DNA from: an uncultured bacterium
Lineage (GTDB): Bacteria; Fidelibacterota; Marinisomatia; Marinisomatales; UBA1611
Assembly (NCBI GenBank): GCA_965660855.1
Contig: CBFIBM010000001.1
Location: 320,001 to 384,000 of the forward strand
Direction: 5' to 3'
Length of the DNA stretch: 64,000 bases
This document shows positions 25,050-37,907 of this stretch, piece after piece. A program made the translations under genes and the position numbers. The notes under the pieces were generated by a model, which saw only the letters and a list, made by a program, of their open reading frames with translations, was not told the origin of the DNA and did not search any database. Within the stretch, counting starts at the first letter, position 1. Each line of letters starts with the position of its first letter.

Positions 25050-26738
25050 CTACTTCATTAAAATAATCTTTTTAGTATCGCTAAATGAACCCGCATCAAA
25101 TAATATGAAATAAACTCCACTGGAATGATTACTTGCGTCCCATTTTTGCAGGTATTTCCCTTCGTTAAATTTTATATTATTTATTATCTGAAATATTTCG
25201 TTTCCCTTTATATCAAATATTTTAAGACTTACCATTTCTTGTTTGTGTAATTGAAATGGTATGTTCACCACTGGATTAAAAGGATTTGGGTAAGATATAT
25301 TTAATGAGTGCTGTTTTGGATAAATCGATGAATTATCATTGTTTAATGTGAACTCAAAGTTAAAGGGTTCTCCTAAATCATGACTCAAGGTAGATCCAAA
25401 ATAACCGGAAACCTCTAATTCTGAAATATTAATAATTTCAAATTCAGAGGTTAAATTGTCATCAGAGTATGTTAATTGAGTTAAAAGTCCCTCACCTGGT
25501 GGTATTGGATTTCCAAAGTATTGTGAAAGTCCAACAACTAATCCAGCATCATTTGTGGAAATAGTCCAACTTTCTTCTTCGGCTCTTCCACCAGATCCAC
25601 TAAGGATGGGAATTGATGAGAGCGTGTTTTCTTCATCTGTTAAAAAAGAAATTTTAAATTGAAATCCATATATTGGTTCATAATTCATTAAGTATATATC
25701 TATTGTTTTATTCATGGTGTTTTGTGCAATAATCTGGAATGAAGCATCTGCATTAGAAATCATTTCGTCACTGTAAACTATCAACTGTGATTCAATAAAA
25801 TAGAATGGTTCAGTATGACCGTTATAATTATAATTACATTCCGCACAGGTTACACCATCAATACACGCTGGATTATTAGGCGAACATGCGTTAAAATAAT
25901 CTTGAAGTACGTAATCTAGTTTAATATTTGATCCAGCATTTATGTAATCGAGAAGATTAAAATCTTGAGGAGTTACTTTATCACCCGGACAGAAACCAGC
26001 TCTATCATAAATCCAAGTACCATTTTGGGGAGAGCAGTTATTACTTTCACAATCAGACCTCCATATGTTATGAATAAAAGTAGGTTCATCATTTATATTT
26101 ATATCATGTATTTTGTAGGAAAACTCTGCTGCATTATCTGTGTTCCCCTGTCCATGACCTGTTGTAATCATCCTTAAATTACTCGCTAAAGCATTTGAAG
26201 GTATATATCCATTGTAAGAAGGTATATCAATAGGGTTTGTATTATCCCCATATACTAAATTGGAGTAATTCCATACTTTTCTAATTGAAGTATAAGCGTA
26301 ATCAGGATTACCAACAATAAAATCAAAAGAAATTGAAACAAGCCAACCAGGGTCTACCCATGTATCAATGTATGATCTTAAAATTACATCTCCTATTAAA
26401 AAAGATCTATAATCGGATACGTTTAGTGACCATCCACATTCAACACCATATGGAGTCACATATCTACCAATTTCAAACCAATCATCACGATTATTAACAG
26501 AGATTTGAGCTTTTCTATCCCAAGGATCACAGCCACCATTTGGACATTCAAGATTAATATTCATAATGATTTCTGAAAAATGTGTGGTATGATTTGGAAA
26601 TGATATTGTATCAGTAAAAACCCTATTATTTCCAGAGTTTCCAAAAAAGTGATGCACTCTATCCAGAGCAACAATGGTTGTGTCTCCTTTGAGGTTTAAA
26701 AATTGAAATAGGAATATTATGAGAATATATTTTTTCAT
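25050..26738 (-). CDS. Secreted peptide-N-glycosidase F-like protein + cohesin-like domain + C-terminal sorting domain
   Basis: CDPWDR, FEIGRYVTPYG, TGHG, AEF, PQNGTWIYDRAGFCPG; IDIYLMN..PIYGFQFKI; YPNPFNP CTD. Confidence 0.75.
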   Translation of the reverse strand: MKKYILIIFLFQFLNLKGDTTIVALDRVHHFFGNSGNNRVFTDTISFPNHTTHFSEIIMNINLECPNGGCDPWDRKAQISVNNRDDWFEIGRYVTPYGVECGWSLNVSDYRSFLIGDVILRSYIDTWVDPGWLVSISFDFIVGNPDYAYTSIRKVWNYSNLVYGDNTNPIDIPSYNGYIPSNALASNLRMITTGHGQGNTDNAAEFSYKIHDININDEPTFIHNIWRSDCESNNCSPQNGTWIYDRAGFCPGDKVTPQDFNLLDYINAGSNIKLDYVLQDYFNACSPNNPACIDGVTCAECNYNYNGHTEPFYFIESQLIVYSDEMISNADASFQIIAQNTMNKTIDIYLMNYEPIYGFQFKISFLTDEENTLSSIPILSGSGGRAEEESWTISTNDAGLVVGLSQYFGNPIPPGEGLLTQLTYSDDNLTSEFEIINISELEVSGYFGSTLSHDLGEPFNFEFTLNNDNSSIYPKQHSLNISYPNPFNPVVNIPFQLHKQEMVSLKIFDIKGNEIFQIINNIKFNEGKYLQKWDASNHSSGVYFILFDAGSFSDTKKIILMK

Positions 26739-28165
26739 TTCAGAAATAAAATTTTATTAGTAAGGATATTTTCTCCATCTGACAATCGGATAATATATGT
26801 TCCAGAGCTAACATTCATTGGCTTCCATGAATAATTGTAAGAGCCTGATTTTAAATGTTCATCAATTAACACATGAGTTAGCTGTCCATTAATATTATAA
26901 ATATGAGCTTTTATATTTTTATCTGATTTTAAGCTAAAAGATATGTTGCAAATTGGGTTAAATGGATTTGGTCCAGATTTCAATTTATATAGATTTGGAG
27001 AAAGAATTTGTTTAGCTTTTACTAAGTTTTTACCCCACCCTCCTAAAGATATTTGCTTAATTTCATTCTTTAGTGGCATTTTCAGATTAAAGCTAGATGG
27101 TAAAGAAGATCCATCCAAAGAAAAACCTATAATCTTTTTCCCTTTTTGGGTCCAGCTCCAATTAGAGGGTAATCCATCATAGGAAATTAAACTTTCATTT
27201 AATAATTGTATTTCAAAACCTAAAATTTCACCATTCGATTCCAAATGAATGTTGTTATTTTGTTTAAAAAATTCAGCTTCTGTCAAAATGGTTCTATTCG
27301 TTATATTTATTTCTAAAACTAATTGAATTATTGTAATAACATCAATTATATCAATTGACCCATCTTGATTGATATCGGATGCATAAACTTGTAATGGCGA
27401 TCCAACTTCATATCCTAACATTATAGATACTAGCATAACAGCATCATAGATATTTATTGATTCATCAAAGTTTATATCACCTAAGATACCAGATAAAGAA
27501 TGTCCATCAACCCAACTTGGTGAACCGCGTAATAAACCATAATGACTATTGTTAGAATGATCAAAGAGTGTATCACCAGTTCCTTCATCGAAAGTATAAT
27601 ATGCAACTAAACCCTCTTCATTTCCTGTAAGACTTTGATCTATGAATTGATTAATCTCCTCTGAAGTTCTTGATATATTCCATAATCGTACTTCATCTAT
27701 TCGTCCGCTAAAAAATCGGCTACTATAATCTGAACCAATTCTAAGAGGATTATTATTTGATGTAACATTTAGGGATGTTCCTGAGAGGTTATATTCTGAA
27801 CCATTTATATATAATTTTCGAGTATTTTGATTTTTTACTGCCGCAATATGGTACCATTGGTTTGCATTAAGAATACCAGTATTTGTAGTTGCCTCATCAA
27901 AACTTAAGCCTGTATATGGTGCTTGGTCTGTAAGCCTTAATAAATAACCATTTGCTGCGCTAGATTGATATTTTGATACAATTCCACTCAGCCATGAAAA
28001 TTCTTCCGGAAATATCCATGCTTCAATTGTGTAATTTGAAGTAAGATCTAATTGATTATGATCTGATATTAAGACGTAATCATTTATTCCATCAAAATCT
28101 AACGATTTATCTTGGCACAATAATAGATTGTAAAGAAATAAGCTAAGAGAAATATAACATTTCAT
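26735..28165 (-). CDS. Secreted LamG/ConA-like + dockerin type I + C-terminal sorting domain protein
   Basis: SLDFDGINDYV, TIEAWI, WYHIAAV, GRIDEVRLWN; GDINFDESINIYD / SDINQDGSIDIID; PNPFNP. Confidence 0.8.
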   Translation of the reverse strand: MKCYISLSLFLYNLLLCQDKSLDFDGINDYVLISDHNQLDLTSNYTIEAWIFPEEFSWLSGIVSKYQSSAANGYLLRLTDQAPYTGLSFDEATTNTGILNANQWYHIAAVKNQNTRKLYINGSEYNLSGTSLNVTSNNNPLRIGSDYSSRFFSGRIDEVRLWNISRTSEEINQFIDQSLTGNEEGLVAYYTFDEGTGDTLFDHSNNSHYGLLRGSPSWVDGHSLSGILGDINFDESINIYDAVMLVSIMLGYEVGSPLQVYASDINQDGSIDIIDVITIIQLVLEINITNRTILTEAEFFKQNNNIHLESNGEILGFEIQLLNESLISYDGLPSNWSWTQKGKKIIGFSLDGSSLPSSFNLKMPLKNEIKQISLGGWGKNLVKAKQILSPNLYKLKSGPNPFNPICNISFSLKSDKNIKAHIYNINGQLTHVLIDEHLKSGSYNYSWKPMNVSSGTYIIRLSDGENILTNKILFLK

Positions 28166-33415: not shown

Positions 33416-35569
33416 ATGTTTAATTTAATTAAACTATTTATTGTACTGTTTTCCCTAAATCTTTTCGCAAATACTCTGAATGTTTCAGTGAATGGTAACA
33501 ATGAAACTGGTGATGGTTCATTCGATAATCCATACGCTACAATTCAAAAAGGAGTAGATGAAGCCAGTCCAAATGACACAGTTTATGTATTTGACGGAAT
33601 ATATGATGGAGGAATTATCATCAATGATAAACCACTGACCTTGCTTGGGCAATCCAGAGAAGAAACAAAGATTAATATTATTAGAAGTACCCCCCAAATT
33701 TCTATTATAGATGTTCAAGATGACATGGTTAAAATTGCTAATTTTAGGATTAAAAGAGGTAGTTCAGATCGTGGGGGTGGCATCTATTCAAAAAATTCAA
33801 AGGTAATGATCAGTAACAGTGATTTTTCACATAACATTTCTAGTTCAAATGGTGGGGCAATATATGCTGATCGATCAGAAATTGAAATTGATAACTCTTT
33901 ATTTTTTCTAAATTCATCAGACTCTCTTGGTGGCTCAATATATGCTCACAAAACAAAATTAGTTCTTCATGACCTAGAATTACGAAATAACAGTGCAGTG
34001 GCAGGTGGTGCTATTGGTTTAGATACTCTATCTCATTGTTTAGTAAATAATTCTGAAATCTTTAATAATGGCGCGAATGTAGGTGGTGGAATTGCCGTTT
34101 TTGATGGTGGTAAGCTTAGTATTCTAAATTCAGATATTTATGGTAATAATGCAAATGCCGTGGGAGGTGTAATTCCACAACACTCTGATCCAGATAATTT
34201 TCCATTGTATGGGGGTGGTGGCGGTTTATATCAACAGTTCTCTGATAGTTTAATTATTAAAAATTCTAACTTTGATAATAATACGGCACCCACTGGGATA
34301 GGTGGTGGCCTTGCTATCTATTATAGTAAGGATATTGAATTAGAAAACGTAAATATTAATGGCAATGAATCAGGCGGAGCTGGAGGTGGTATTTGTTTTT
34401 TACGTTCAGATTATATTAATTACAATGGTGGTGTAATTAGAGATAATAGATCAAATTCTAACAGTGGTGGAGGTATCCATTTAGGAACCGAATCTTTTGA
34501 TGCTTCAATTATAGTTAATGCTACATTTAGTAGATTAGATTTTATTAATAATTATGCACAGGTTGGAGGTGGTGGTCTAATGTTATGGTCAGCCCGAGTG
34601 AATGTCTACAACTCAACATTCTCTCAAAATGAAGCAAATGATAATGATGGAACCTCTAGTTGGAGCGGTGGTGGTTTATCATCTCACTCCGTAGCTGAGC
34701 CAAATATAATAAATTCTATATTTTATAATAATTATCCCAACTCATTACATCATCCATCTACAACTTCAAACATGAGCGTAAAGTATTCTCTTCTTGAAGA
34801 GTTTCATAGCGGAGTAGAAAATCTTATTGAGATTGATCCTCTATTCAAAGATCCCGAAGGTGGCGATTTTACTCTGCAACCAAATAGCCCATGTATTGAT
34901 GCTGGGATGTCTGATTTTGATTATGATGGTATTGATGAAATCAATGATTATTTAGGTTCAGCTCCGGATATGGGTTCTACCGAATTTATGCTCGATCCCC
35001 CATTGGGTTTTAACGGATTTATATTAGATTCATCTGTAGTTCTAACTTGGTTACATATTACAGATCCAGGTTTTCAATACTATAAAATTGAACAATCGAA
35101 TGACTCTTTATTTAATGACGAAGTATTAGAGTTATATATCACTGAGAATACACATACCACTGAAAACCTTAATTTTGATTCAACGTATTTTTTCAGAGTT
35201 TCTGCATTTGTTGGATACTGGACAGATTATTCTCCAGTATTAGCTTTTACTCTTGAAACTTTAGAATTGGAAAAGAACATGTTACATGCTCAGGAATTTA
35301 ATGTAAGTCAAAACTTCCCAAATCCATTCAATCCAATTACTTCGATTCAATATACCATACCAGTAAATGGATTTGTAGATATCATTATTTACGATATGAA
35401 AGGTAGAGTGGTAAAAAACTTAAAGAGTGATTATGAAGTTGCAGGAACCAAATCTATTCGGTGGAATGCAACAGATAACTTCGGTTCGTCTGTTCCTACT
35501 GGAATGTACATTTATAGTGTCAAAGCTGGACCATTTCTGAAAAATACAAAAATGATTTTACTGAAGTAA
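33416..35569 (+). CDS. Secreted right-handed beta-helix (DUF1565/PMP-like GGAI repeats) + FN3 + C-terminal sorting domain
   Basis: GDGSFDNPYATIQKG, repeated GGAIY/GGGL, DPLF..DFTLQPNSPCIDAG, YFFRVSA, QNFPNPFNP. Confidence 0.8.
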   Translation: MFNLIKLFIVLFSLNLFANTLNVSVNGNNETGDGSFDNPYATIQKGVDEASPNDTVYVFDGIYDGGIIINDKPLTLLGQSREETKINIIRSTPQISIIDVQDDMVKIANFRIKRGSSDRGGGIYSKNSKVMISNSDFSHNISSSNGGAIYADRSEIEIDNSLFFLNSSDSLGGSIYAHKTKLVLHDLELRNNSAVAGGAIGLDTLSHCLVNNSEIFNNGANVGGGIAVFDGGKLSILNSDIYGNNANAVGGVIPQHSDPDNFPLYGGGGGLYQQFSDSLIIKNSNFDNNTAPTGIGGGLAIYYSKDIELENVNINGNESGGAGGGICFLRSDYINYNGGVIRDNRSNSNSGGGIHLGTESFDASIIVNATFSRLDFINNYAQVGGGGLMLWSARVNVYNSTFSQNEANDNDGTSSWSGGGLSSHSVAEPNIINSIFYNNYPNSLHHPSTTSNMSVKYSLLEEFHSGVENLIEIDPLFKDPEGGDFTLQPNSPCIDAGMSDFDYDGIDEINDYLGSAPDMGSTEFMLDPPLGFNGFILDSSVVLTWLHITDPGFQYYKIEQSNDSLFNDEVLELYITENTHTTENLNFDSTYFFRVSAFVGYWTDYSPVLAFTLETLELEKNMLHAQEFNVSQNFPNPFNPITSIQYTIPVNGFVDIIIYDMKGRVVKNLKSDYEVAGTKSIRWNATDNFGSSVPTGMYIYSVKAGPFLKNTKMILLK

Positions 35570-35628
35570 TCATTTGAACTTTTGAGATTAAAAGCAATAA
35601 AATTTGTATGTTAATGTTTAGACATTCT

Positions 35629-36828
35629 ATGAAGATACTATACAAAATTCCTTATCTTGCATTTTTAATAAGTTTGTTGCAATCTCAGGATGATTATAGT
35701 TTGGAGGATATTAATACAAACTCAACATCTTACGGAGACTCCATTGGAATTTCTTATTTTGAAAATAATGTAGTTATCCACTATTTTGGTCATTTTTATT
35801 GAGGGACTTGCACTGCCAGGTTTGGACAGTTAAATAGTCTATACGATGATTTTAAGTCTCAAGGTTTGAACATAGAATTAGTTGGAATTGGTAAAGATAG
35901 TCATCTTAGTAGTTTAAATAACTGGATAAGCGGAAACTCTGCACCTATTGTTGCAGATGAGAGCCCATTCAATGTTTGGAATAATTGGAACGCAGGACAA
36001 AGAGAAATGTTTATTACGGACTTAAGCGGTAATATTGTTTTTCAAGAAAATATAACAAGTGGTATTCCGGATACTCTTGAAGGATTTTTGTTAGATTTAT
36101 TATCATATAATAGTCCAAGCCTTTGTGAGTTAGGTGATGTGTATGTTTCAGAAGCTCATAACTCTGGAGACCCTGAAGATTATATTGAAATCTATAACTC
36201 AACTAATGAGGATTGTTCTCTTGAAGGATTTCAACTGGATGATTCAAGTTTATTAGATGATTTTACATTTGGAGAAGTTATTCTTTCTGCAGGTGGATAC
36301 TGGGTTGGATACGAAGATGACGATGATAGTTTTAGTTCGGGATTAAGTTCAGACGGTGATTCAGTTGTCTTTGCTGACCCTTCTGGTAATTATATAGTGA
36401 ATATCTTAGGACCATCAGAAGAATTCGAAGGGACTTCTTTGACTCACAATTTTTCATCTGATGGAGAGGCTTGTTATTCATTACCATCTCCGGGGTTGGA
36501 TAATGAAGAGTGTATTGTTTTAAAAGTAGATAATAATAGCCATTTAATTAGCACCTTTACATTATTTAATAATTACCCTAATCCATTTAATCCTAAGACT
36601 ACATTTCAATTTAGTTTGGAATATAAAAATTATATAAACATTAATATTATTAACCTTAAAGGCCATGAGGTAAAAAAAATATTAAGTAAAAAAATGGAAC
36701 CTGGTATATATTCCATTACATGGAATGCAACAGATAATAACAATGTCATAGTCCCTTCTGGAGTTTATTTTTATAAAGTTCAATCAGGAGCCTTCCATAA
36801 AACAAAAAAAATGATATTAATAAAATAG
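35629..36828 (+). CDS. Predicted selenoprotein: signal peptide + AhpC/TSA-like redoxin (UxxC) + lamin-tail domain + C-terminal sorting domain; TGA 35800-35802 read as Sec
   Basis: ORFs 35608..35802 and 35866..36828 share a frame with no other stop between them; reads VIHYFGHFY-TGA-GTCTARFGQLNSLYDDFKSQGLNIELVGIG; LTD DYIEIYN..SLEGFQLDD; NNYPNPFNP. Start could alternatively be 35608. Confidence 0.8.
35804..35840 (+). promoter_or_regulatory. Putative bacterial SECIS element
   Basis: Lower stem GACT/AGTC; upper stem ACTG-CCA / TGG-(A)-CAGT; apical loop GGTT starting 17 nt after the UGA. Confidence 0.65.
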
Positions 36829-36842
36829 CATAAAGGTTTTAC

Positions 36843-37115
36843 ATGAATAAATTATACATGCAGACGATTTTAATTCTAATATTTATGACATTTTCTTTAT
36901 CATGCGGCTCTCTTAATAAAGCTCATGGTGAATTGCATTACAACAATAACATATCAAAAGGTCAAGAACTCATTGATTTAAAAAAAGCTTTGGATGAAGG
37001 TGCTATTTCTAAAGATGAATTCGAATTAATGAAGGAAAAAGTGATAGATAATGAATACACAAAAGAAATTATTGATACTTCGAAGAATGGTATAAAAACT
37101 AAAATAGTTATTTAG
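36843..37115 (+). CDS. Small SHOCT-domain lipoprotein
   Basis: Lipobox LSC; ELIDLKKALDEGAISKDEFELMKEKVI. Confidence 0.75.
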   Translation: MNKLYMQTILILIFMTFSLSCGSLNKAHGELHYNNNISKGQELIDLKKALDEGAISKDEFELMKEKVIDNEYTKEIIDTSKNGIKTKIVI

Positions 37116-37121
37116 GTAAAT

Positions 37122-37907
37122 ATGATATCGATTAGATGTATCCTAATCTTAGTTATTTTTACAAAACTTCTATTCTCATCAAAAATTATTTATCAAGATT
37201 GTAATGAACCATTAGAGCCTCCTTACCATGGAACTATTTTTTTAGATCCAAATATCATCACAAAATTTGACAAGTCCTCTTTCGAGAAGATTGAGTATGT
37301 GGGTAAAGAAGAAAGAGTTATGTTTGATCGGAGATACGATGATTGGATAACCGTAGTACCCTTCATTTTTATAGCATCTTTTTCTGATAATTTAATTATT
37401 GAAGTCCAAGTTAATCCAGAATTTATTACAGTTAAAGATGCGAAAAATATAGCTTCAAAATATTGTATGCCTGTAGGACAACTACCAACTTCTTTAAGGT
37501 TGGAAGTTAAAACCATGTGGATACATCGAGGAATGAAGGCGTTTGGTGGTGGAAATCAAAATATTTTGATACATACAGATTGGTCTGAAATGCATTATGA
37601 AGATCAAGGAATTCTTGAGGAAACTCTTTTTCATGAAGCGACACATACTTCATTAGACGGCCTTTTTTCAGAGGATGAAAATTGGATCAATGCCCAAGAA
37701 AAAGATTGTAACTTTATTTCAACCTATGCTTTAGAAAATCCTGAAAGAGAGGATATTGCGGAAAGCTTTTTACCATTTTTTGTAATAAAATTCTTCCCAA
37801 ATCGTATACCAGCCTCCATGAACAAAACAATCCTTGAAACTATACCAGCAAGAATAAAATATTTTGATGATAAAGTTTTAGATTATTTTCCGTTAATAAT
37901 TGAATGA
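37122..37907 (+). CDS. Secreted putative zinc metallopeptidase-like protein
   Basis: Signal peptide; HEATH; ISTYA...REDIAESF. Confidence 0.6.
   Translation: MISIRCILILVIFTKLLFSSKIIYQDCNEPLEPPYHGTIFLDPNIITKFDKSSFEKIEYVGKEERVMFDRRYDDWITVVPFIFIASFSDNLIIEVQVNPEFITVKDAKNIASKYCMPVGQLPTSLRLEVKTMWIHRGMKAFGGGNQNILIHTDWSEMHYEDQGILEETLFHEATHTSLDGLFSEDENWINAQEKDCNFISTYALENPEREDIAESFLPFFVIKFFPNRIPASMNKTILETIPARIKYFDDKVLDYFPLIIE

Follow-up and report, generated by a model that had tools for sequence, protein, structure and literature searches.

The locus considered here raises a simple question: are two open reading frames (ORFs) that lie in one frame, parted by a single TGA, two genes, the halves of a broken gene, or one gene in which the TGA encodes selenocysteine (Sec)? 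The ORFs are found in a stretch of 64,000 nucleotides from an uncultured bacterium (assembly GCA_965660855.1, contig CBFIBM010000001.1, positions 320,001 to 384,000), hereafter called the window. ORF calling with translation table 11 yields 35608-35802 (64 aa) and 35866-36828 (320 aa, with a TTG start) in a common frame, and the TGA is the sole in-frame stop between them. An initial annotation of this DNA had joined the two into a gene for a secreted selenoprotein. Translation of 35629-36828 on the (+) strand bears out that the TGA alone parts them: it gives 399 codons whose sole internal stop is the TGA at 35800-35802, and the peptide derived from the DNA around that stop is ...HYFGHFY-U-GTCTARFGQLN... 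The two ORFs are very probably one gene encoding a selenoprotein of 399 residues, which belongs to the marine Prx-like 2 / redoxin_TUGYCR family and is carried by a Neomarinimicrobiota (SAR406-type) genome.

The column of the TGA was compared across homologous genes at several depths. Full-length orthologues in eight related genomes share 49-62% identity with the window protein and contain one TGA apiece; orthologues are located in 'Candidatus Neomarinimicrobiota' genomes, which fits the guess, made from the letters of the window, that the host belongs to the Marinimicrobia. The 58 loci examined correspond to 54 distinct places, four of them being present twice. At the Sec column of these 54 distinct genes, TGA occupies 53 and Cys one (L079, which reads H-C-G-T-C); the comparison thus returned both kinds of homologue, with a conserved TGA or with Cys, that the initial annotation had pointed to as support for Sec. 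The pairing of Sec and Cys at one column is the classic signature of a genuine selenoprotein. With tblastn, a stop was found at the identical column in 23 of 23 loci from relatives, and protein similarity persisted on both flanks. When 41 related genomes were searched in six frames, 30 matches that cover the redoxin domain were listed, and 29 of them have exactly one TGA and no other stop. The family is present in 118 of the 401 genomes sampled from the phylum, and among the 150 matches listed from these genomes 148 have one TGA, one has a TGA and a TAG, and one has no TGA. Finally, 1.84 billion cluster representatives were searched with a profile, with 1698 matches at E<=1e-3. The best 150 of these representatives have Cys (69), Trp (27) or another residue (7) at the Sec column, or lack the column (47), the called protein then beginning downstream of it. 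On this comparative evidence, UGA58 is a conserved and genuine Sec codon in a UxxC thioredoxin-fold redoxin.

The genome that contains the window encodes the machinery for Sec insertion, which the initial annotation had proposed as a check on its claim. All four components are present, and all exceed curated cut-offs: selA (494 bits), selB (303 bits), which adjoins selA, selD (389 bits) and a tRNA-SeC with anticodon TCA (63 bits, against an Rfam cut-off of 47), on which ARAGORN agrees. The selD gene has one in-frame TGA of its own (G000:C19:7427-8353, locus L008), and the selenophosphate synthetase therefore appears to be itself a selenoprotein. TGA is otherwise a normal stop here, as had been stated from the letters: the window has 40 ORFs of 200 aa or more, which end in TAA (26), TGA (8) or TAG (6), and behind the eight that end in TGA the next stop lies within 0-17 codons. 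The TGA is also found in independent assemblies. DNA runs of two other studies supply contigs that agree with the window at every position of 35400-35904 and that differ from it once, at 35991, over 35400-36843. Contigs from RNA libraries (two runs, from a strain about 98% identical) span 35400-36283 and 35432-36298 and leave 36318-36533 uncovered; within 35680-35836 they show no difference, so that both the TGA and the hairpin that follows it are unchanged. An assembly error at the TGA, which had been named as a way in which the claim could fail, is contradicted by these contigs, two DNA runs and two RNA-library runs all keeping the TGA.

Two alternatives to Sec were weighed. The first is that TGA is read as Trp, or as another standard residue, in this lineage. 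It draws on the W found at the Sec column in 27 of the best 150 public representatives. However, W is aligned to a TGA of DNA in 26 of these 27 (for example in P0028, which shares 98% identity with L080, and in P0014, which shares 81% with L030), and the 90%-identity clusters of the W forms also contain members of 56-58 residues that stop just ahead of the column. Because W aligns to TGA and such short members occur, the W forms are best explained as TGA translated by gene callers under a Trp table, and W-containing homologues, considered as a refutation of Sec, were rejected as gene-calling artefacts. A Trp reading is moreover at odds with the termination of 8 of 40 long window ORFs by TGA, one of them in an ATGA overlap at 37904-37907, and with a dedicated tRNA-Sec plus SelA/SelB in the genome; it is vanishingly improbable. 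The other alternative is that the TGA is a true stop, in a broken gene or between two genes, or else an assembly error. Public gene calls are indeed split, the 320-aa downstream piece being recorded in public protein sets as an unnamed ORF of its own, and one relative's match (G016:C101) has several stops once it is extended past the domain, within which it has one TGA only. Against a true stop, the TGA is present in 53 of 54 genes across several families of the phylum, with protein conserved on both flanks; against two genes, the downstream ORF alone would be left without a signal peptide and without half of the fold; and against an assembly error, the TGA is kept in contigs of independent studies. 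This second alternative is therefore also highly improbable.

The read-through W versions (P0003-P0028 and others, 27 of the best 150) come mostly from metagenome protein sets derived from ENA, and Trp-bearing public homologues are a trap wherever 'Trp homologues' serve as a test of Sec. Either way, annotation loses the gene: public calls split it into ORFs of 64 and 320 aa or render its TGA as Trp, and this mis-annotation is repeated across the family. Once the TGA is recognised as Sec, dozens of probable surface proteins per lineage regain their signal peptide and half of their catalytic domain.

In bacteria, the hallmark of a selenocysteine insertion sequence (SECIS) is a small, G-containing apical loop shortly 3' of the UGA (PMC1088965). 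The stem-loop that follows the UGA of the window fits this description, with a GGUU apical loop 20-23 nt from the U of the UGA, a location at which SECIS elements bound by SelB occur in bacteria. In an alignment of 23 homologues (A1), GGTT is invariant (23/23) and a hairpin can form around it in every sequence. The helix formed by columns 20-25 and 31-36 of A1 has 80.4% of its cells paired, in contrast to 29-55% in controls that slide the partner along by 1-3 columns, and its covariation score is 0.535, in contrast to 0.10-0.18 for the slid controls. Changes on both sides were observed at five of the six helix pairs (C-G, G-C and A-U all occur at one pair), and RNAalifold independently returns the same helix. 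Relative to it, the register of the window's own hairpin is slightly shifted, and an A bulges out. An Rfam scan of 35600-36000 returned no SECIS family, only five chance-level matches (E 0.9-5.9).

The protein is ordered as a signal-like N-terminus, a thioredoxin-fold redoxin, a lamin-tail domain and a type IX secretion system (T9SS) type A sorting domain (Table 1). This is the architecture predicted from the letters, now borne out by matches to NF053656, PF00932 and TIGR04183, with a signal sequence that is probable by eye. With C substituted for U, the best NCBIfam match is NF053656 (96.4 bits, E 1.4e-27, residues 21-144); AhpC-TSA (PF00578) matches residues 34-137 with 26.0 bits, exactly at its gathering cut-off of 26, and orthologues score 20-25 bits. 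The lamin-tail domain is also found in orthologues, and four conserved Cys surround it (C166, C196, C283 and C296). The sorting domain scores 36.8 bits with TIGR04183 (cut-off 23) and 29.1 with PF18962 (Por_Secre_tail; cut-off 27). An AlphaFold2 model built on a 34-row alignment has a pLDDT of about 90 for the redoxin and about 90 for the sorting domain, a beta-sandwich, and of 41-63 for the lamin-tail part, where the model is weak. In this model, U58 lies between a strand (48-55) and a helix (59-77). The best solved structures found by Foldseek are ResA (1su9_B, TM 0.80), a Bacillus thiol-disulfide oxidoreductase (4nmu) and DsbE/CcmG/TlpA-type proteins (TM 0.75-0.81); peroxiredoxins rank below, with TM 0.60-0.67.

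Table 1. Features of the selenoprotein gene, in window coordinates
Feature	Position	Strand	Basis or detail
Whole selenoprotein gene	35629..36828	+	399 codons, then TAG stop; alternative ATG at 35608
Probable Sec-pathway signal peptide (residues 1-19, MKILYKIPYLAFLISLLQS)	35629..35685	+	by inspection
Thioredoxin-fold redoxin, Prx-like 2 / TUGYCR type (residues 21-160)	35689..36108	+	NF053656, AhpC-TSA, AlphaFold, Foldseek
UGA, selenocysteine 58, first position of the U-G-T-C redox motif	35800..35802	+	column conservation, ResA alignment
Cys61, resolving residue of UxxC	35809..35811	+	invariant in 51/51 aligned domains
SECIS hairpin	35812..35830	+	stem 35812-35818 with 35823-35830 (A bulge), loop GGUU 35819-35822
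Arg125, at the thioredoxin-fold cis-Pro position	36001..36003	+	invariant in 51/51 domains
Lamin-tail domain (residues 169-256)	36133..36396	+	PF00932, 46.8 bits vs cut-off 34.3
T9SS type A C-terminal sorting domain (residues 316-396)	36574..36816	+	TIGR04183, PF18962

In the HMMER alignment with Bacillus subtilis ResA, U58 and C61 fall on the two Cys of its WCEPC site, U58 corresponding to Cys74. The TGA therefore occupies the place of the nucleophile, which comes first in a CxxC-type site, as the initial annotation had it. The family profile aligns Arg125 with the Pro of ResA 'LPTTF', that is the conserved cis-Pro, which precedes strand 3, and R64, three residues after Cys61, is likewise invariant among the 51 aligned domains. 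The cis-Pro is reported to be more conserved than CxxC among disulfide oxidoreductases, to be part of the polypeptide-binding site and to prevent metal binding at CxxC, and peroxiredoxins have in its place an Arg by which the peroxidatic Cys is activated (PMC2757866). The peroxiredoxin motif P-x-x-x-T/S-x-x-C(U) itself is absent at F53-G-H-F-Y-U58, there being no Pro at -7 and no Thr or Ser at -3. The predicted active site is thus a hybrid, in which a CxxC-like pair is combined with a peroxiredoxin-like Arg in the absence of the peroxiredoxin Thr at -3. For enzymology, UxxC with Arg at the cis-Pro position represents a natural intermediate between two well-studied types of active site.

Which substrate such a site would act on can be argued in three ways. 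Since an invariant Arg replaces the polypeptide-binding cis-Pro, a small oxidant such as peroxide is tentatively favoured over protein disulfides, with a likelihood that I would put slightly short of even. A serious contender, held with less assurance, is a ResA/TlpA/DsbE-like protein thiol-disulfide oxidoreductase, which would reduce, isomerise or form disulfides of exported or T9SS proteins, possibly those of its own passengers. The closest PDB matches are ResA and DsbE/CcmG/TlpA (profile E 3.6e-5 and the TM values given above), UxxC resembles CxxC, the protein is probably extracytoplasmic as ResA-type proteins are, its own lamin-tail part has four conserved Cys, and DsbD_TM occurs in the genome. 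All this must be set against the replacement of the cis-Pro by Arg in 51 of 51 domains, and against a gene neighbourhood that is unconserved beyond the genus and whose T9SS-type neighbour has only 3 Cys. One can also imagine U58 and C61 as a site for metals or metalloids, which at the cell surface might, for instance, trap or detoxify Cu, Hg, Cd or As. Selenolates are soft ligands, the module is predicted to be extracellular and is fused to binding-type domains, and the cis-Pro, said to block metal binding (PMC2757866), is missing here. Conversely, Pfam detects no metal-handling genes among the neighbouring ORFs, and an Arg in place of the cis-Pro is what peroxiredoxins have and no known feature of metal sites. 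A metal site is therefore improbable.

The place where this redoxin would work can be approached from its ends. The N-terminus consists of MK, 15 hydrophobic residues and then ...LLQSQ, with Lys at position 2 and a predicted helix over residues 2-17 (by eye and in the model), and the N-termini of the orthologues have a similar hydrophobic stretch ending in G/A/S-Q. At the other end, the sorting domain has its counterparts in the genome: SprA is present in pieces on two contigs (C56 and C60), there are two PorU genes (596 and 559 bits, above cut-off), and the search with the PorU model gave about 46 further genome matches, to the sorting-domain end of the model. A DsbD transmembrane domain is encoded as well. 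From these features, export of the protein and its sorting to the surface of the cell are both probable.

A pathway from gene to activity can be proposed as follows. SelB carrying Sec-tRNA would decode UGA58 with the aid of the hairpin; the precursor would cross the inner membrane through the Sec export pathway and fold in the periplasm; and its C-terminal domain would route it through the T9SS, PorU cutting this domain off to leave a surface-anchored or released protein. The selenolate of U58 would attack an oxidised substrate and C61 would resolve the adduct, giving an intramolecular selenenylsulfide. Some reductant would then have to reopen the latter, be it a pathway of DsbD type acting ahead of secretion or thiols of the surroundings. 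Extending this scheme to the whole family, one may speculate that the T9SS carries the Neomarinimicrobiota redoxin module to the surface in fusion with interchangeable passengers (lamin-tail, beta-helix, DUF285, dockerin) and that its members are extracellular selenoenzymes, a generalisation that is rather unlikely to hold as it stands. If it were true, Sec might have been chosen for two properties that Cys lacks: it withstands irreversible over-oxidation, and ambient thiols or O2 can recycle it with no cellular reductase involved. The cell would then own a self-sufficient peroxide scavenger or thiol oxidase at its surface. In biological terms, abundant ocean bacteria would be spending selenium on exported, probably surface-displayed proteins, which bears on the marine demand for selenium, and the family also bears on the handling of oxidants and thiols outside the cytoplasm.

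Several points weigh against the reading of this gene as one for an exported Sec redoxin. The genome is 84% complete and in 81 contigs. The signal peptide is a call made by eye. The NF053656 score of 96.4 bits (91 in the six-frame search) lies below the curated cut-off of 100, and the motif of the window is Y-U-G-T-C-T, not T-U-G-Y-C-R, with U, G and C retained and T, Y and R not. At -3, the Thr of peroxiredoxins is replaced by His55. The contigs from RNA libraries are no proof of transcription, strand or level. As to the hairpin, folding of the window sequence alone gives a z-score of -0.47 relative to shuffles, which is not significant, and a loose rule of the form 'GGTT hairpin after TGA' has 19 chance matches at 18 of the 2685 TGA trinucleotides of the window. 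Since the single-sequence fold is weak and the loose rule is commonly matched, the case for a SECIS rests on covariation and compensatory changes; this covariation overlaps in part the conserved R-F-G codons, and the relatedness of the sequences inflates shuffle tests. Finally, I know of no reductant for an extracellular redoxin, and this is the main weakness of any catalytic model.

The redoxin is found in several settings. Its partners are a lamin-tail and a sorting domain, as in the window (394-408 aa), a sorting domain alone (256-272 aa), eight DUF285 repeats and a sorting domain (1188 aa), a beta-helix and a sorting domain (about 510 aa and 898 aa) or, in one example (L082), a dockerin (362 aa); it also occurs at the C-terminus of proteins of about 400 aa whose N-terminal domain is of no known family, and as a stand-alone form of about 190 aa with a lipoprotein-like N-terminus. 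In a tree of 51 domains, 14 rows, the window protein among them, form a clade of their own (support 100/99, stem length 1.27). As this clade mixes lamin-tail, sorting-only, DUF285 and dockerin forms, passengers were exchanged within it. The lamin-tail part of the window protein (36121-36522, residues 165-298) is 47-74% identical to stretches of marine Flavobacteriales metagenome-assembled genomes (MAGs; L091-L098), that is, of a different phylum. It is nearer to these stretches than to some orthologues of the same family, which hints at passenger exchange between marine lineages.

The N-termini of stand-alone forms (L049-L055, L058 and L072) end in ...[LF]-x-A-C-[SP]K and resemble lipoprotein signals, so that some members of the family are probably lipid-anchored rather than sorted by the T9SS. 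The paralogues of about 510 aa in sister genomes score 120-200 bits on NF053656, and a six-frame search of the window's own genome, which is incomplete as stated, did not find this beta-helix paralogue. In these paralogues (L031-L039 and L065-L078), a Cys-rich stretch of the beta-helix, ...GSCGG.GGG...GDCDC.CYFGGG..., is conserved across genera. Cys forms from elsewhere (C-x-Y-C) also score 120-200 bits on NF053656; they are fused to Big_9, cadherin-like, SdrD_B, dockerin or cyclophilin domains and, where named, are called 'hypothetical protein' only (Verrucomicrobiota and Phycisphaeraceae MAGs). One database representative of 612 aa (P0002) has five tandem redoxin_TUGYCR domains (517.6 bits, 5 stretches). 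The copy aligned on the profile reads D-P-A-C at the Sec/Cys column, and that copy therefore lacks the nucleophile.

It had been suggested that the protein services the disulfides of Cys-rich secreted proteins encoded nearby. This suggestion found no support. The upstream neighbour is a T9SS-type protein of 717 aa with 3 Cys, which is kept beside the orthologue in two genomes of the same genus only (L020, 75%; L026, 70%); beside the other orthologues examined, only sorting domains match it. Pfam detected no redox partner among 18 neighbouring ORFs. The idea of an operon or partner was rejected, the neighbour being kept within the genus only and no redox partner lying nearby. Three T9SS-type cargo genes are found within 10 kb, at 26735-28165 (-), 33416-35569 (+) and 35629-36828 (+), and one of the three encodes a protein with Laminin_G_3, dockerin and sorting domains.

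How far is this selenoprotein new? The initial annotation knew of no described selenoprotein with a redoxin, a lamin-tail and a sorting domain, and here it does not stand. Dataset S1 of the selenoproteome drawn from Global Ocean Sampling (GOS) lists the family under '#Prx-like 2' (Zhang & Gladyshev 2008, PMC2398784). The reads listed there have the core ...HYFGHF[TY]-U-GTC-T-x-RFGQLN..., and some of them run on into the lamin-tail part (...PCELG..VSEAHTSGDPEDYIE..CSLEGFQLDD...), others into an NYPNPFNP sorting domain (PMC2398784). In a match made by eye, not by a computed alignment, the Sec-flanking sequence and the UxxC motif of the window protein agree with these entries. NCBIfam, for its part, curates the domain as NF053656 redoxin_TUGYCR, a 'TUGYCR motif thioredoxin fold (seleno)protein', a term that the literature search did not find. 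The 2008 listing together with this model means that the selenoprotein family was already known. Even earlier, a UxxC 'Prx-like protein' family was counted as a known selenoprotein in the 2005 Sargasso Sea paper (PMC1088965), and a 2026 review places 'Prx-like thiol:disulfide oxidoreductase' among the high-confidence families (PMC13188914). In Dataset S1, some '#Prx-like 2' reads are UxxU, with a second Sec at the resolving position, and one GOS read carries two adjacent Prx-like 2 genes (PMC2398784); the UxxU form was not met among the 54 genes examined here.

The 2008 paper describes Prx-like 2 as a UxxC protein and very distant homologue of peroxiredoxins, with low similarity to pfam04592, as marine-enriched, as occurring in fusions and as being without strong homologues in sequenced genomes (PMC2398784). 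In the parts of that paper that were compared, its fusion figure lying outside the comparison, no lamin-tail or T9SS domain is named, no host is given and export is not discussed, and 'signal peptide' is absent from the main text. The text of the 2026 review likewise does not contain 'signal peptide', 'secreted' or 'periplasm' (PMC13188914). The literature search, judged from titles and the beginnings of abstracts, found no paper linking a selenoprotein with the T9SS and no relevant one on selenoproteins of Marinimicrobia; as far as this search reached, no description of a surface-sorted bacterial selenoprotein was found. The T9SS surface-cargo reading, the lamin-tail domain, the Neomarinimicrobiota host and the Arg in place of the cis-Pro were thus not found in print and are possibly unpublished, with the same reserve as to the fusion figure of the 2008 paper. 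The gene itself is a real, well-supported selenoprotein gene split by standard annotation, and not one of a new kind.

The position of the window protein among known systems can now be stated. With NF053656 it shares Sec or Cys at the same column, but it belongs to a separate, well-supported clade (14 of 51 rows). With ResA, TlpA and CcmG (DsbE) it has in common the thioredoxin fold, a redox pair at the start of helix 1, the lead-in strand 'F-x-L-x-D...G' and a predicted extracytoplasmic location. By contrast with these proteins, it has Sec for the first Cys and Arg for the cis-Pro, and it lacks a membrane anchor and has passenger and sorting domains instead; the similarity in sequence is marginal (E about 1e-3 to 4e-5). 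Peroxiredoxins (AhpC/TSA, including the Sec TxxU forms) share with it the Arg at the cis-Pro position and the structural position of the nucleophile, whereas their P-x-x-x-T-x-x-C/U motif, quoted as PxxxTxxU for the Sec forms (PMC13188914), is missing from the window protein, which has His at -3 and its resolving Cys at +3, as in CxxC. The N-terminal domain of selenoprotein P (PF04592), a secreted eukaryotic protein, is comparable as a UxxC thioredoxin-fold domain and in its secretion, predicted for the window protein. A Cys-form member of the family (P0006) has a weak SelP_N match (26.8 bits), and the window protein has none at E<=1 in Pfam; the two systems differ in SECIS type and in kingdom, and the window protein has no Sec-rich tail. 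Finally, the protein resembles T9SS type A cargo of Bacteroidota and related phyla in what appear to be the appropriate ends, a signal-like N-terminus and a TIGR04183/PF18962 C-terminus, and in the presence of SprA and PorU in the genome, which also has dozens of other ORFs with sorting domains.

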